From the NCBI GenBank assembly GCA_039188945.1, contig JBCCYW010000001.1:43003-107002 (forward strand): a DNA stretch of 64,000 nt. The letters run 5' to 3'. The first letter of the stretch is position 1. The number at the start of each line of letters is the position of its first letter. The notes under the pieces are model-generated. The model was not told where the DNA came from. It ran no database searches and saw only the letters and a program-made list of their open reading frames with translations. The stretch comes from Patescibacteria group bacterium (lineage in GTDB: Bacteria > Patescibacteriota > Minisyncoccia > Phycocordibacterales > UBA918). The position numbers and the translations under genes are program-made. Below, piece by piece: positions 3,330-11,316 of this stretch.

Positions 3330-3403
3330 GGGCCCGTAGCTCAGATGGCTAGAGCACCTGTTTTGCACTCAGGAGGTCGCTGGTTCAAGTCCAGTCGGGT
3401 CCA
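3330..3403 (+). tRNA. tRNA-Ala (anticodon UGC)
   Basis: Cloverleaf folded by hand. Acceptor GGGCCCG/CGGGTCC has the G3:U70 alanine identity pair. D arm GCTC-AGATGGCTA-GAGC. Anticodon loop TTTGCAC gives anticodon TGC. T arm GCTGG-TTCAAGT-CCAGT. Discriminator A; no encoded CCA. Confidence 0.9.
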
Positions 3404-3423
3404 CAGTGCCTTTAAGTATTTGT

Positions 3424-3545
3424 GGGCCTGTTCATTAGTCTCCCAGACTAATGAACCTCAGATGGCTAGGGGCAATAACTGCTGGGAGCAGTTATTGCGG
3501 TTTCCGTTCAGTATAGGTCGCTGGTTCAAGTCCAGTCGGGTCCAC
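3424..3545 (+). pseudogene. Degenerate tRNA-Ala-derived copy with two inserted perfect 12-bp hairpins
   Basis: It shares the 5' GGGCC and D-loop CTCAGATGGCTAG with the intact tRNA. The whole 3' half (AGGTCGCTGGTTCAAGTCCAGTCGGGTCCAC) is identical. Hairpin GTTCATTAGTCT/CCCA/GACTAATGAAC sits between the acceptor and D arm. Hairpin GCAATAACTGCT/GGGA/GCAGTTATTGC replaces the anticodon arm. Confidence 0.6.
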
Positions 3546-4406: not shown

Positions 4407-4656
4407 AAAGACAGCTAAAGTATACAGTTTGTATAACTATGGAAAACTGGAATTGTTCACTTCACAAAGCTATTTTGTGGTGGTAGTATGTGCGCGAGTC
4501 ACGAATTAAGAGATCCGGTAAGCAGTGACCAAAGAGGCTTCATGAGCGGCAAATAAGCTCAAAATCCACACAAACGAAGGATTTTGTACTCAATGTGCCG
4601 CTGATACAAGCGGACGCGGATCTCAAAAACGGACTCAATAACTACTCCTATTTGTT

Positions 4657-5430
4657 ATGTCTGGATGGATACAGACAGCTCAGGCTGCTGAGGGAATATC
4701 AGTAAAACTAGACCCATATATTGTGGGAGAGTTTGCAGGTGTCGCAATTACCTCAACCATGCTAACCGTGTGGTTGGCGATGTTTTTGATTGCTGTGTTA
4801 GTAGTCAGTCTTGGTGTACTCAAAAAAGTTCCAGGCAAACTGCAAAGTATCGTTGAGGTAGTTATTGGTGGTGCATTCAATTACATGGCAACCACGCTTG
4901 GCAGCAAGGAAGCTGCGAAGAAGTATTTTCCAGTAGTCATGACTATCTTTATGTTTCTTTTAGTTATGAACTGGGTGGGACTCTTACCAGGCGTTACAAC
5001 CATTGGCTTAATGGAAGGGTATGGTGATAAGAGCCATTTGGTGCCATTCTTTTACCCACCAGCGACTGACCTCAACATCGCCATCGCGTTTGCTGTTGTT
5101 GCCATGGCTACGATTTGGTTTGCGGGCGTAGCAGCACTGGGAGTGTTCAAATACGCTAGTAAGTTTATTAGTTTCAAATCACCTCTAGCATTCCTAGTTG
5201 GTATTATCGAACTTATTTCTGAAATTGGACGCTTGGTAAGCTTCTCATTTCGATTGTTTGGTAATATCTTTGCTGGAAAAACCTTGTTGGTGGTGGCCAC
5301 ATTCTTTGTGCCGTTTATCCTGCCGGTACCAATTTTGGCGTATGAGGTGTTTGTAGGCTTTATCCAAGCTGGAGTATTTGCCTTCTTGACCTTAGTGTTC
5401 ATCAAGCTAGCTATTGAAGAACCGCATTAG
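4657..5430 (+). CDS. atpB: F0F1 ATP synthase subunit a
   Basis: Polytopic protein with the conserved Arg helix (SFSFRLFGNIFAGKTLL). First gene of the atp cluster. Confidence 0.9.
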   Translation: MSGWIQTAQAAEGISVKLDPYIVGEFAGVAITSTMLTVWLAMFLIAVLVVSLGVLKKVPGKLQSIVEVVIGGAFNYMATTLGSKEAAKKYFPVVMTIFMFLLVMNWVGLLPGVTTIGLMEGYGDKSHLVPFFYPPATDLNIAIAFAVVAMATIWFAGVAALGVFKYASKFISFKSPLAFLVGIIELISEIGRLVSFSFRLFGNIFAGKTLLVVATFFVPFILPVPILAYEVFVGFIQAGVFAFLTLVFIKLAIEEPH

Positions 5431-5586: not shown

Positions 5587-5853
5587 ATGTCTCCAGAAAT
5601 GGAATTGGCGCTCCAGGCGTCACAAATGAGTGCCGACTCAATCAAGGCGATTGCAATGGCGCTTGCTGCTGGTATCGGTGTACTCGGTCCAGGTATCGGT
5701 ATTGGTCTTTTGGTTTCAAAAGCCCTTGAAGCAATGGGTCGTAACCCTGAAGCTGCACCACAAATTCAGAGCACCATGATTCTTGGTATCGTGTTCGTGG
5801 AAGCTCTCGCTATTTTTGCACTCGTTGTAGCCTTCGTTATCCGCTTCGCCTAA
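5587..5853 (+). CDS. atpE: F0F1 ATP synthase subunit c
   Basis: 88-aa hairpin proteolipid (GIGIGLLVSKALEAMGRNPEA ... ILGIVFVEALAIFALVVAF). Confidence 0.9.
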   Translation: MSPEMELALQASQMSADSIKAIAMALAAGIGVLGPGIGIGLLVSKALEAMGRNPEAAPQIQSTMILGIVFVEALAIFALVVAFVIRFA

Positions 5854-5882: not shown

Positions 5883-6329
5883 ATGGAACAACTAATCGAA
5901 GCGTTTGGCATTGATACTAAAGGTATTGTTATTCAAATCATTAACTTCGCTATTTTAGCGGCCGCTTTAACGTACTTTCTGTACAACCCAGTCCTCAAAC
6001 TCCTGAATGAACGGGAAGAAACCATCAAACAAGGTCTCAAGGACGCAGAGGATGCGAAGCAGGCTAAAGAATCAGCAGAAGAAGAGAAGAAAGCGGTGCT
6101 TGGTGAAGCTAATAAAGAAGCGGAAGCGGTGGCTGCCCGAGCAAAAGAACATGCCGATGAAAAAACTGCTGGGATTGTTGCTACTGCTGACGAGAAAGCT
6201 GCTGCAATCGTGAAGGACGCTGAAGCCAAGAGTGAAGAAATGAAAGCGCAAGCTCGCAAAGATAGTGAGGCTGAAATAAGTAAGCTGGCTATTCTAGCGG
6301 CTGAGAAAATTCTTCGTAAAGAAGCCTAA
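5883..6329 (+). CDS. atpF: F0F1 ATP synthase subunit b
   Basis: N-terminal TM helix, then a long Ala/Lys/Glu-rich helix. Position in the operon fits. Confidence 0.85.
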   Translation: MEQLIEAFGIDTKGIVIQIINFAILAAALTYFLYNPVLKLLNEREETIKQGLKDAEDAKQAKESAEEEKKAVLGEANKEAEAVAARAKEHADEKTAGIVATADEKAAAIVKDAEAKSEEMKAQARKDSEAEISKLAILAAEKILRKEA

Positions 6330-6336
6330 ACCAAAC

Positions 6337-6714
6337 ATGCGTGATAGTTACCTACAAGCCACTTTGGCATTAATTCAAGAAGGATACGATCCCCAAAAGC
6401 TCATTGATGGTCTTAAAGAGACCTTGGCTGCCAGAGGACACCAAGCTCTGTTGCCAAGTATCTTGCAAGCTGTTTTACGTGAACTTGAAGCGGGTAAGAC
6501 AACCACGAAGGTAACTGTCGCAAAAGCTACTGATGCTGAAGTCCTTAAAGCTGAAATCACCGCCGCACTAAAAAATATTCAAGCAACCGATGAGGTTGTG
6601 ACTGAAGTAGATGAAACTATTGTTGGTGGCTTTGTGGCTACTGGTAATGGAAAAACTATCGACGCTTCTTATAAACACAAGTTGGTACACCTGTATCGAT
6701 CACTTACTACCTAA
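6337..6714 (+). CDS. atpH: F0F1 ATP synthase subunit delta (short, 125 aa)
   Basis: Sits between atpF and atpA. Helical N-domain. Truncated relative to typical ~180-aa delta. Confidence 0.7.
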   Translation: MRDSYLQATLALIQEGYDPQKLIDGLKETLAARGHQALLPSILQAVLRELEAGKTTTKVTVAKATDAEVLKAEITAALKNIQATDEVVTEVDETIVGGFVATGNGKTIDASYKHKLVHLYRSLTT

Positions 6715-6729
6715 CATTCACACGTAATT

Positions 6730-8292
6730 ATGAGCACAACAATAATTGATCGGATCAAAAACGAGATCCAAAACCTCGACACCACGGCTTTGCCAGAGGA
6801 AGTCGGTATCGTCCAGACTGTTGGAGACGGTATTGCTGAAATAGAAGGACTCCAGAGCGCCCAGATGATGGAGATGGTGGTCTTTCAAGATGGTGATGGA
6901 AAGTCACTCGAAGAGACCATCGCCAAAGACGATGCGCTGTATGGTCTTATCCTCAACCTTGAAGAAGATGTCGTGAAGGTGGTTGTGCTTGGAGAGAGTG
7001 ATCGTGTGAAGGAGGGGATGCGCGTGATGCGTACTGAGAAGCTGCTCTCGATCCCGGTCGGTGAGGGAATTGTAGGGCGTGTCGTAAGTCCGCTTGGTGA
7101 GGCACTTGATGGGAAGGGGACGATCGAAACCAATCGTGATATGCCAATTGAGCGGGTAGCGTACGGAGTAATGGACCGCTCTGGTGTGAACGAACCAGTC
7201 CATACTGGCGTAAAGGCTATCGACTCAATGATTCCAATTGGTCGCGGGCAACGCGAACTCATCATTGGCGACCGCCAGACTGGTAAAACTACCATCGCGA
7301 TCGACACCATCATCAACCAAAAAAACGAACCAAAAGACAAACGCCTGATCTGTATTTATGTAGCAATTGGCCAGAAGCGTTCAAAGACCGCGTCGTTAGT
7401 TGCCAAATTACAAGAAGCTGGAGCGATGGAATACACCACCGTGATTGCTACTTCTGCTTCTGAGCCTTCTCCAATGCTCTTCTTGGCACCGTTTGCAGGT
7501 GCTGCTATTGGTGAGTACTTCATGGAGCAAGGAAAAGACGTGCTTGTGGTATTTGATGACCTTTCAAAGCACGCAGTTGCGTACCGACAGATGTCACTTC
7601 TCCTGCGACGTCCGCCGGGACGTGAAGCGTATCCGGGAGATATCTTCTACCTGCACTCACGTCTCTTGGAACGTTCGGCCAAGCTCTCAGCTGAGCTGGG
7701 TGGAGGCTCGATCACTGCACTCCCGATTATTGAAACCCAAGAAGGTGACGTATCTGCCTACATTCCAACTAATGTTATCTCAATTACCGATGGTCAGATT
7801 TTCCTTGAAACTGATCTCTTCAACAAGGGTATTCGCCCAGCACTTAATGTTGGTATTTCGGTATCACGCGTCGGTAGTTCTGCGCAAACCAAGGCGATGA
7901 AAAAGGTGTCTGGAAAGATTCGTCTCGAGTTGGCACAGTTTCGTGAGCTCGAAGCCTTCATGCAGTTTGCCTCCGATCTTGATGAAGATACAAAAGCTCG
8001 CATTGATTCTGGTCGTAAGTATGTAGAACTTCTCAAGCAAGACCAAGGAGACCCAATGCCATTTTATAAGCAAGTACTTTCAATTTATGCTGCCAACCAG
8101 GGTCTCTACGACGGTACGGCTCCAGACATGGTTCGTGAAATTGAAGCAAAGTACATTGAAATGGTTGAACGTGATCATAAGGACATTCTTGAAACTATTG
8201 AAACATCACGAGCCATCGATGATGTAACTGAAAAAATGGATCAAAGCATCGAAGCTTTCAAAACTGCACACAGTGATTGTTACGGAGCATAA
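6730..8292 (+). CDS. atpA: F0F1 ATP synthase subunit alpha
   Basis: 520 aa. Walker A GDRQTGKT. Typical alpha motifs. Confidence 0.95.
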
Positions 8293-8300
8293 AATTCAGC

Positions 8301-8630
8301 ATGACAAGTCTGGTCGATAAAAAGTACAAAAAAAATTCAGGCGCCGCGAGTGTTCTCGCGACGCCCAAGGGCATCTTAGCCGTCATTGACGATCGGTCTC
8401 ATTTCGAGAACTTGACCGTCTTTGTTCACGAATGTGAGCCTGAGGAGCGTGACAGCTTCATTTTTGTCGTTGAGGGCAATGCTCAGGTCGATAAAATAGT
8501 ACATGGTTCCTTCGGGCACTACACAAGAGAACTCCTTGACGCTGATGCCAAAGAAGGAACTGTTCGAGATGTTGAGAAGTGCCATTGCAATGGTCTCCAA
8601 TCTTCTGATGTTTCAATACATTTAACATAA
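8301..8630 (+). CDS. Hypothetical protein inserted between atpA and atpG (possible cupin-like small protein)
   Basis: 109-aa ORF fills an otherwise unexplained 340-nt gap inside the atp operon (MTSLVDKKYKK...FVHECEPEERDSFIFVVEGNAQV...HGSFGHYTRE). No atp subunit matches it. Confidence 0.4.
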   Translation: MTSLVDKKYKKNSGAASVLATPKGILAVIDDRSHFENLTVFVHECEPEERDSFIFVVEGNAQVDKIVHGSFGHYTRELLDADAKEGTVRDVEKCHCNGLQSSDVSIHLT

Positions 8631-8647
8631 TTTTGTATATTGTCAAT

Positions 8648-9553
8648 ATGGCGCTTAAACAAATCAAAAACAAAATAATTTCTACCCAAAAGACTGGCAA
8701 AGTGACTAAGGCCATGGAGTCTGTGTCTGCGGTGAAGATGCGTAAGAGCCAGGAGCGGGCGTTTGCTGGCCGACCATATGTTCATGCCGCGCTACGAATT
8801 CTTTCCCGCTTAGCTAACTCGCAAGATGGCCTCTCACACCCACTAGCTGAGAAACGAAGTGCTGGTAAGAAACTTATAGTTATTGTGACCAGCGATAAGG
8901 GTTTGGCGGGGAGTGTGAATAGCGCCGTACTCAAGCGAGTTGATGATATGGCTAAGAATGGCAATGAGTTTGACGTGATCGCAGTTGGTCGTAAGGCAAT
9001 AGAGTATGCAAAGCGCGAGGGACACACGCTGCTTGGGGAGTACATGAACATTGCTGATGATGTCACTATGGAAGATGTCTACGATATGACCGCCAAGGTG
9101 ATGGAGGCATTTTCAGGAGACTCTTCATATAGTGAAGTGGAGGTAGTCTATCAAAATTTTCTCTCAACTTTCGAGCAAGAACCAACCAAGCGACAGGTGT
9201 TGCCGCTCGATCCAGCTGAACTGCATTACATCATGCGTGGCATCAAGCCAAAAGAAGGGAAATGGAGTGGCGATGTAGAGGGGCCAGAATCAACCATTGG
9301 GTATACGGTAGAGCCTTCTGCAGAAGAAGTGTTGAATACCCTTATTCCCCAGTTGGTACAGATTGTGCTCTACCACGCCCTGCTTGAAAGCAAAGCGTCT
9401 GAGCATTCTGCGCGGATGGTGGCGATGAAAAACGCCACTGACAAGAGTAAGGAAGTAGCCAAGGCACTTACACTCAAGTACAACAAAGCCCGCCAGGCAG
9501 TGATTACGGCTGAGGTAAGTGAAATTACCGGAGGTATTGAAGCTATGAAGTAG
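8648..9553 (+). CDS. atpG: F0F1 ATP synthase subunit gamma
   Basis: MALKQIKNKIISTQKTGKVTKAMESVSAVKMRK. C-terminal ...ITGGIEAMK. Alternative start at 8633. Confidence 0.9.
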   Translation: MALKQIKNKIISTQKTGKVTKAMESVSAVKMRKSQERAFAGRPYVHAALRILSRLANSQDGLSHPLAEKRSAGKKLIVIVTSDKGLAGSVNSAVLKRVDDMAKNGNEFDVIAVGRKAIEYAKREGHTLLGEYMNIADDVTMEDVYDMTAKVMEAFSGDSSYSEVEVVYQNFLSTFEQEPTKRQVLPLDPAELHYIMRGIKPKEGKWSGDVEGPESTIGYTVEPSAEEVLNTLIPQLVQIVLYHALLESKASEHSARMVAMKNATDKSKEVAKALTLKYNKARQAVITAEVSEITGGIEAMK

Positions 9554-9579: not shown

Positions 9580-11028
<1,449 letters not shown>

Positions 11029-11033
11029 AAACT

Positions 11034-11276
11034 ATGGCTAAATTACTTAAACTCACGATCTCTAAAGTTGATGGACCAGTCTTTGACGGTGCGGTTGCTT
11101 CTGTCCATGTGCCGGGCATTGACGGAGAAATGGAGATTCTCGCTAATCATGAACCACTAATTTCTCCTCTGAAGGCAGGAAAGGTAACGGTAAAGAAGGA
11201 GAGCGGGGAAGAATCATATGACATCCAAGCTGGAACTCTAGAAATATCAAACAACCACGCTACTATTTTGATTTAA
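11034..11276 (+). CDS. atpC: F0F1 ATP synthase subunit epsilon (short, 80 aa; beta-sandwich only)
   Basis: Last gene of the operon. Lacks the C-terminal helical hairpin. Confidence 0.8.
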   Translation: MAKLLKLTISKVDGPVFDGAVASVHVPGIDGEMEILANHEPLISPLKAGKVTVKKESGEESYDIQAGTLEISNNHATILI

Positions 11277-11285
11277 TCTGTAGAC

Positions 11286-11316
11286 AAAAGCCCGCGCCTT
11301 CGGCGCGGGCTTTTGC
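11286..11316 (+). terminator. Rho-independent terminator of the atp operon
   Basis: AAAAGCCCGCGCC-TTC-GGCGCGGGCTTTTG: GC stem plus U-run. Confidence 0.85.

Follow-up and report, generated by a model that had tools for sequence, protein, structure and literature searches.

The window analysed here, a 64,000-nt stretch from a Patescibacteria (Parcubacteria/Paceibacteria-like) MAG, contains an F1Fo ATP synthase operon in which a spacer with an ORF of its own separates the genes for the alpha and gamma subunits. The region is made up of the following features, of which atpB, atpE, atpF, atpH, atpD and atpC were assigned from the ORF listing and Pfam:

4657-5430, plus strand, atpB
5587-5853, plus strand, atpE
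5883-6329, plus strand, atpF
6337-6714, plus strand, atpH (delta)
6730-8292, plus strand, atpA (F1 alpha), stop codon TAA at 8290-8292, upstream flank of the insert
8301-8630, plus strand, ORF of 109 aa (NCBI AAGA35_00200, hypothetical protein), ATG at 8301, TAA at 8628-8630
8648-9553, plus strand, atpG (F1 gamma), downstream flank of the insert
9637-11028, plus strand, atpD
11034-11276, plus strand, atpC (epsilon)

The preliminary description of this locus had placed a 109-aa ORF between atpA and atpG, and the ORF, here called the plus ORF, matches that account exactly, down to its start and stop codons. It begins 8 nt past the atpA stop codon, ends 17 nt short of the atpG ATG and is preceded by a GGAG 12 nt upstream of its start. 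The gap between alpha and gamma had been given as 340 nt; the gap itself is real, but its true length is 355 nt, with atpG starting at ATG 8648, as in its relatives (MALKQIKNKI), and not at the upstream TTG 8633 of the ORF listing. Pfam confirmed the operon order as a-c-b-delta-alpha-(gap)-gamma-beta-epsilon, and it also confirmed that two of the subunits are as short as had been described. The 125-aa delta matches only positions 64-172 (of 172) of the OSCP profile, approximately its C-terminal two thirds, and the 80-aa epsilon consists of the beta-sandwich domain alone, without the C-terminal domain. Upstream of the operon, ARAGORN places a 93-nt tRNA-Pro(GGG) at 3453-3545, next to a tRNA-Ala (3330-3404). 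The Rfam tRNA model at its gathering threshold recognizes the tRNA-Ala alone, and the long tRNA-Pro could hold an insertion or intron or be a false call.

An AtpG scan of genome and metagenome collections yielded 160 fetched loci, about 58 of which are Patescibacteria relatives with a readable atpA-atpG junction (atpG 46-74% identical). In all but seven of these relatives, the gap between the tblastn matches of atpA and atpG is 6-121 nt (with one slight overlap). Measured exactly, the spacers of the closer relatives are 2-111 nt long, and those of most relatives are 2-30 nt long. A homologous insert was found at a single one of the fetched loci, L001, which is also the only one of the seven long-gap relatives whose spacer is homologous to that of the window, and this homology is limited to window positions 8290-8440. 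The atpA products of the two are 79% identical, and a tree of AtpA and AtpG does not place the window and L001 (77% identity) as sisters. The loci nearest to L001, L081 and L003 (92.5% and 91.2% identical), have spacers of 20 and 66 nt in which the insert is absent. The insert is patchily distributed and probably dispensable. It is known from two genomes, and all comparative tests described below rest on this one pair. The plus ORF is present in only one other contig, Logan SRR22824305, the sequence of which agrees with that of the window at 100% and hence offers no strain variation.

Within and next to the spacer, the following features were located, most of them on the strand opposite to that of the atp genes:

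8301-8319, no strand assigned, 19-nt box ATGACAAGTCTGGTCGATA, identical at 17/19 positions in L001 (5624-5642)
8327-8368, minus strand, predicted intrinsic (Rho-independent) terminator with a 14-bp stem (8368-8337), loop AACA and U-tract AUUUUUUUUG (8336-8327)
8376-8600, minus strand, ORF of 74 aa from TTG 8600, in register with the plus ORF and proposed to be the real gene; JGI called its L001 equivalent
8403-8438, minus strand, conserved coding block LTFVNKDGQVLE (LTFVNSAGDVLE in L001) with the C-terminal motif LTFVNxxGxVLE
8641-8646, minus strand, putative -35 box TTGACA, abutting the atpG start codon, with a weak -10 box in the window
8700-8672, minus strand, alternative candidate promoter TTGCCA-17-TATTTT

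The hairpin at 8368-8337 has 14 pairs, 9 of which are G-C, and a tail ATTTTTTTTG. It ranks first among the terminator-like sites of the atp region and, by the number of G-C pairs, also among those of the 60 kb scanned. When folded as minus-strand RNA, the window sequence forms 14 unbroken pairs (-24.9 kcal/mol, z -5.6), whereas in the plus-strand RNA the stem is broken by a C.A mismatch (-18.3 kcal/mol, z -2.8). The asymmetry is greater still in L001, where the minus-strand RNA again forms 14 unbroken pairs (-26.2 kcal/mol, z -5.2), whereas the plus-strand RNA, with C.A and A.C mismatches, folds no better than shuffled sequences (z -0.13). These plus-strand mismatches are G.U pairs on the minus strand. 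When the window is compared with L001, three pairs of the stem have changed on both sides (U-A to A-U, A-U to G-C and G-C to A-U) and two further pairs have changed through wobble, so that all 14 of the 14 pairs are kept. The plus side of the hairpin carries no U-tract. Folding and covariation show the features of a Rho-independent terminator that is predicted to act in the minus direction only, and atp transcription should read through it, since on the plus strand the U-tract is lacking and the stem is mismatched. The G+C-rich 14-bp hairpin, the tetraloop, the U-tract and the position a few nucleotides past a stop codon are all as in other Rho-independent terminators, but the hairpin of the window lies inside an operon and points in the antisense direction. 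A similar hairpin is found at the end of the atp operon (11286-11315). It is symmetric, AAAAGCCCGCGCC-TTCG-GGCGCGGGCTTTT, with an A-tract before it and a T-tract after it, and looks bidirectional; it is absent from the listing of the consensus terminator scan.

The stop codon that precedes the terminator belongs to the minus ORF (TAA, 8378-8376), and in both the window and L001 it lies 7 nt before the stem. The minus frame of the window is open for 78 codons. Apart from the TTG at 8600, it offers an alternative start at ATG 8585, which would give a 69-aa product and has a GGAG 9 nt upstream. In L001 the minus cassette consists of TTGACA-17-TATTCT, an AGGAG 8 nt before an ATG, an 80-aa ORF and the stop codon at the same distance from the stem; the corresponding minus-strand promoter of the window is weak. 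The two public annotation pipelines disagree on this locus: PGAP at NCBI called the plus ORF in both genomes, whereas the JGI call in L001 is the minus ORF.

A comparison of the 36-nt block at 8403-8438 between the window and L001 bears on the choice of the strand. The two sequences differ at 12/36 nt, and 8/12 of these differences fall at codon position 3 of the minus frame. Read in that frame, three codons are identical, six differ synonymously only and three differ nonsynonymously, and 9/12 residues are kept. If the changes are placed at random, at least 9/12 minus-frame residues are kept with P=0.0003, which rises to about 0.002 once six frames are corrected for. In the plus in-register frame only 3/12 residues are kept (P=0.96), the changes falling at plus position 1. 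The phase bias by itself, 8/12 at one position, amounts to about 0.06 after correction for three phases. These values should be read with the knowledge that the block was chosen post hoc from one sequence pair and that the last 8 codons of the ORF have no wobble bias. With this qualification, the block shows wobble-biased conservation of the minus frame at the level of the nucleotide comparison. The N-terminal 54 codons of the minus ORF are not alignable between the window and L001.

Single-sequence AlphaFold predictions gave a pLDDT of 70.8 and a pTM of 0.59 for the minus product, with residues 20-70 scoring 74-88 and forming three long beta strands, and a pLDDT of 36.6 and a pTM of 0.27 for the plus product, in which no residue reaches 70 or more; the comparison of the two was made without a control. 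From the model, we infer that the minus product is a beta-rich orphan protein. A Foldseek search against PDB and BFVD returned no significant match, and neither product has a recognizable fold. The codon-usage log-odds per codon (sense versus mirror) are -0.006 for the minus and -0.11 for the plus frame in the window, and +0.17 and -0.25, respectively, in L001; both are near zero in the window, and the minus frame scores above the plus frame in each genome. Native genes have a mean of 0.65 in the sense frame (sd 0.23) and of -0.55 in the mirror frame, so that the minus ORF, at about 0, is far from native. On this ground the insert gene looks compositionally foreign. The GGAG and AGGAG sequences before the minus ORFs may also point to a foreign origin, as a Shine-Dalgarno sequence is lacking in every one of the 13 native genes of the window that were inspected alongside the plus ORF; their start regions (57-86, 4627-4656, 6700-6729, 8618-8647 and 9607-9636, for example) are A/T-rich upstream instead. 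The absence of this signal from native genes fits the reported loss of the anti-Shine-Dalgarno motif in a subgroup of Parcubacteria (PMC9297842). The window itself contains no rRNA gene.

Searches for relatives of either product were negative throughout. Pfam, NCBIfam, PHROGs and PADLOC contain no family to which the plus ORF could be assigned. The earlier statement that it does not resemble any ATP synthase subunit thus holds for Pfam and NCBIfam, while its description as loosely cupin-like finds no support: there is no cupin match in Pfam at E<=1, and the AlphaFold model is not confident. In a word-indexed search of 5.8 bn proteins the plus ORF retrieved itself alone, and an exhaustive HMMER search of 1.84 bn representatives found no true homologues. 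The two proteins that it returned besides the ORF itself, P0002 and P0003 (E 3e-5 and 3e-4), are long and repetitive and were judged to be spurious matches. Searches of the 5.8-bn protein set, of phages and of plasmids yielded no homologue of the minus ORF, and no homologues of the insert were found in viral contigs, phages or plasmids. In PDB, the plus frame had one weak sequence match that missed the threshold (3peb_A, E 0.017), and no match of the minus frame had an E-value lower than 0.87. Neither frame of either genome matches a toxin-antitoxin or defence system in PADLOC, Pfam, PHROGs or NCBIfam, and these searches revealed no family, partner gene, or defence or toxin-antitoxin signature for the minus product. 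The motif LTFVNxxGxVLE, which we had presumed to be DUF2283-like, cannot be kept under that name, as Pfam is silent even at E<=10.

The atpA-atpG spacers of several other relatives also hold genes, all on the atp strand and unrelated to the insert of the window:

L002, 1263-1667, atp strand, NUDIX hydrolase
L099, 1765-2301 and 2307-2726, atp strand, inosine/xanthosine NTPase and MazF-like endoribonuclease
L017, 5711-5986, atp strand, small two-TM ORF
L086, 981-1250, atp strand, small two-TM ORF
L089, 1321-1608, atp strand, small two-TM ORF

The three two-TM ORFs (90-96 aa) share the architecture of a TM helix, a Cys-containing loop, a second TM helix and a basic tail. Their mutual similarity is weak (Smith-Waterman z 2.4-5.4), they have no Pfam or NCBIfam match, and they could be a genuine operon-associated small membrane protein in those lineages. 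All of these other inserts are ORFs on the plus strand, and each stops 1-11 nt short of the ATG of atpG. Other spacers of the L001 operon are occupied as well. A 111-aa orphan ORF lies between atpG and atpD, and the atpD-atpC spacer holds a HicA toxin (PF07927, 1.9e-14), a UPF0150/HicB-like ORF and a 38-aa ORF; all are on L161, which is the same contig as L001, and these four ORFs lie there at 2618-2953, 821-1048, 631-843 and 511-627. The best-supported reading of these observations is that the atpA-atpG junction is an insertion hot spot for unrelated small genes, and it is this junction, together with other atp spacers of the clade, that serves as their landing site. The suggestion that the 109-aa ORF is a hitchhiking gene is therefore correct in so far as the junction gathers unrelated small genes in several relatives, but the hitchhiker is most likely on the opposite strand. 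The observation also bears on how insertions into an essential and otherwise tightly packed operon are tolerated in streamlined genomes free of Shine-Dalgarno sequences.

We also looked for traces of the insertion event itself. A joint horizontal transfer of the insert and its flanks was rejected, as the adjacent atpA and atpG segments of the window are no closer to L001 in nucleotide identity than they are to L081. Neither terminal repeats nor a target-site duplication could be recognized, there being no convincing flanking repeats at the insert. The two junctions resemble the insert-free junction TAAATTCAATATGG of L085 and L029, over a stretch too short to test. In L001 a 14-nt inverted repeat (5632-5645/6029-6042, 13/14 complementary) connects the 19-nt box to atpG codons 10-14 (nt 29-42). 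Long-range pairing between the box and this part of atpG was considered and discarded, since relative to shuffles the duplex has a z of -0.67 in the window and a marginal z of -2.2 in L001; the L001 repeat may be due to chance or be a lineage-specific remnant of an insertion event.

On balance, we lean towards the explanation that the insert is an antisense orphan mini-gene with its own one-way terminator, lodged at an insertion hot spot, and that the plus ORF is its mirror frame. The functional content of this dispensable insert of about 350 bp would then be a small minus-strand gene, antisense to the atp operon, the promoter region of which would abut the atpG start codon. Its product would be a beta-rich orphan protein of 69-74 aa ending in the LTFVNxxGxVLE region, and its function might be that of a selfish or accessory protein, although this is a guess. 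Transcription would run past the stop codon into the Rho-independent terminator 7 nt beyond it, leaving atp read-through on the plus strand unblocked. The 109-aa plus ORF would be the in-register mirror of the minus gene, extended over the terminator. The insert as a whole would be one of several small genes, unrelated to each other, that came to lie at the atpA-atpG junction of related Patescibacteria, and convergent transcription of the mini-gene could incidentally dampen the expression of atpGDC.

Mirror, or shadow, ORFs are a classical source of wrong-strand gene calls, and the locus resembles them in that the plus and minus frames share their codon boundaries, the stop codons of each corresponding to TTA, CTA and TCA in the other, and in that two pipelines picked opposite strands in L001. 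We thus appear to have documented a likely wrong-strand call that was resolved differently by two public pipelines. The locus differs from a simple shadow ORF in that the plus frame overshoots the minus gene on both sides, has a conserved ATG 6-8 nt past the atpA stop codon and stays open in both genomes despite their unrelated insert bodies, which is rare for a passive shadow. In its small size, patchy occurrence and possession of its own expression signals, the insert is also similar to spacer-lodged genes and toxin-antitoxin modules such as the HicA/HicB-like pair of the L001 atpD-atpC spacer, but it is a single antisense gene with no toxin-antitoxin, defence or phage match and no detectable partner.

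The properties of the plus frame that do not fit a simple shadow lead to the foremost of the alternatives, which we consider unlikely but worth weighing, namely that both strands are used. The minus gene would be real, and the plus frame would be translated as a functionless relay ORF that hands ribosomes over from atpA to atpG. In a tentative version of such a relay, ribosomes ending atpA might reinitiate at ATG 8301 and be carried across the insert as far as 17 nt from the atpG start. It is conceivable, if doubtful, that termination-reinitiation coupling would be preserved in this way in a Shine-Dalgarno-free genome, for which the absence of that signal from the 13 native genes and its reported loss (PMC9297842) provide a fitting background. 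The plus frame is open for 109 codons in the window and for 117 in L001, even though the insert bodies share no similarity, whereas an in-register mirror frame is open in only about 7.5% of the 74-codon windows of the window's real genes. Beyond the minus ORF it stays open for a further 35-43 codons, the chance of which is about 0.12 and 0.08. The 19-nt box, which begins at the plus ATG and lies beyond the minus terminator, is conserved at 17/19 positions, the other junction inserts are plus ORFs that approach atpG closely, and most relatives have short spacers. The plus frame is thus open in both genomes more than chance predicts, and it may be translated. However, ORF-free spacers of 58-111 nt in L082, L084, L003 and L006 indicate that tight coupling is not obligatory. 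Furthermore, these probabilities were estimated post hoc, and the estimate shrinks if TTA, CTA and TCA are simply codons that the minus gene avoids; it has none of them and favours CTC for Leu. Were both strands in use, which we regard as a minor possibility, the F1Fo operon would contain a mobile antisense mini-gene with a relay frame selected to be open, and convergent transcription could tune atpGDC. It would also provide a clean case from nature in which selection acts to keep a frame open and not on what that frame encodes.

It is improbable that the plus ORF is itself the real gene, a fast-evolving orphan co-transcribed with atp as a hitchhiker or accessory factor, and that the minus-strand features are incidental. 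Its orientation and tight packing between atpA and atpG are those of an operon gene, PGAP called it in both genomes, and the segments covered by the plus frame alone have positive plus-frame codon scores. The start ATG and the first six codons are conserved (M-x-S-L-V-D), and the N-terminal 44 residues are 40% identical to those of L001 with a pairwise E-value of 1e-5. However, the first 26 codons of the ORF overlap the strong minus-strand terminator hairpin, and the conservation found there is accounted for at the RNA level by base pairing, G.U wobbles and compensatory changes; in particular, the conservation of residues 13-24 (GAA..ATP.G) follows from the pairing of the minus-strand hairpin. 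A closer inspection of the 25 aligned N-terminal codons shows that the differences are spread evenly over the codon positions (7/8/8) and that 12 of the 15 changed codons are nonsynonymous and 3 are synonymous. The remaining C-terminal 65 residues are not alignable with L001, the changes in the block at 8403-8438 fall at plus position 1, the predicted fold is not confident, and there are no homologues beyond the two weak spurious matches. Moreover, a real plus gene leaves the strand-specific terminator 7 nt past the minus stop codon in two genomes unexplained. As far as can be judged from the two sequences, the plus frame has no amino-acid-level conservation, and the sequence of its product is most likely not under selection.

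Slightly more improbable still is that the insert encodes no protein, being a cis-antisense non-coding RNA that ends at the minus terminator or a decaying insertion remnant: the insert body at 8440-8600 is not conserved between the window and L001, homologues and families are missing, and codon usage is atypical in both frames, but at a stop probability of 0.058 per codon 74 codons remain open by chance with a probability of only about 0.012 per frame per genome, and here both genomes keep a pair of in-register frames open over sequence that is unrelated between them, a wobble-biased block lies beside the terminator, the fold prediction for the minus ORF is fairly confident, and an Rfam scan of 8000-8900 at E<=1 gave no structured-RNA match.

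Several small regulatory or accessory parts of F-type ATP synthases are known, such as the epsilon C-terminal domain, the alpha-proteobacterial zeta, the cyanobacterial AtpTheta and AtpI/AtpZ. Like zeta, AtpTheta and AtpI/AtpZ, the plus ORF would be a small protein encoded beside atp genes. It differs from them in that it resembles none of them in sequence or profile, is not conserved with the operon and is uncorrelated with a short epsilon, and in that the frame with support lies on the opposite strand. It had been proposed that the ORF encodes a lineage-specific accessory or regulatory subunit, with conservation of its position in related genomes as a check. This proposal does not withstand the comparison, in which the homologous insert is confined to L001 and is missing from all other relatives of the roughly 58, L081 and L003 included. 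The insert is not supported as a conserved component of the ATP synthase, and the plus ORF is most likely not one of its subunits. With this, a candidate for a new patescibacterial ATP synthase subunit, tempting as it was but unsupported, can be struck off.

The more specific idea that the ORF replaces the missing C-terminal domain of epsilon fares no better. In every relative that could be measured, epsilon is 79-92 aa and delta 116-131 aa long, whatever the length or content of the atpA-atpG spacer. Since the insert is patchy and the short subunits occur irrespective of the spacer, the idea of an epsilon substitute is not supported, and the presence of the insert shows no link to the short epsilon. 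The truncation of delta and epsilon is instead a clade-wide lineage trait, which may merit a study of its own.
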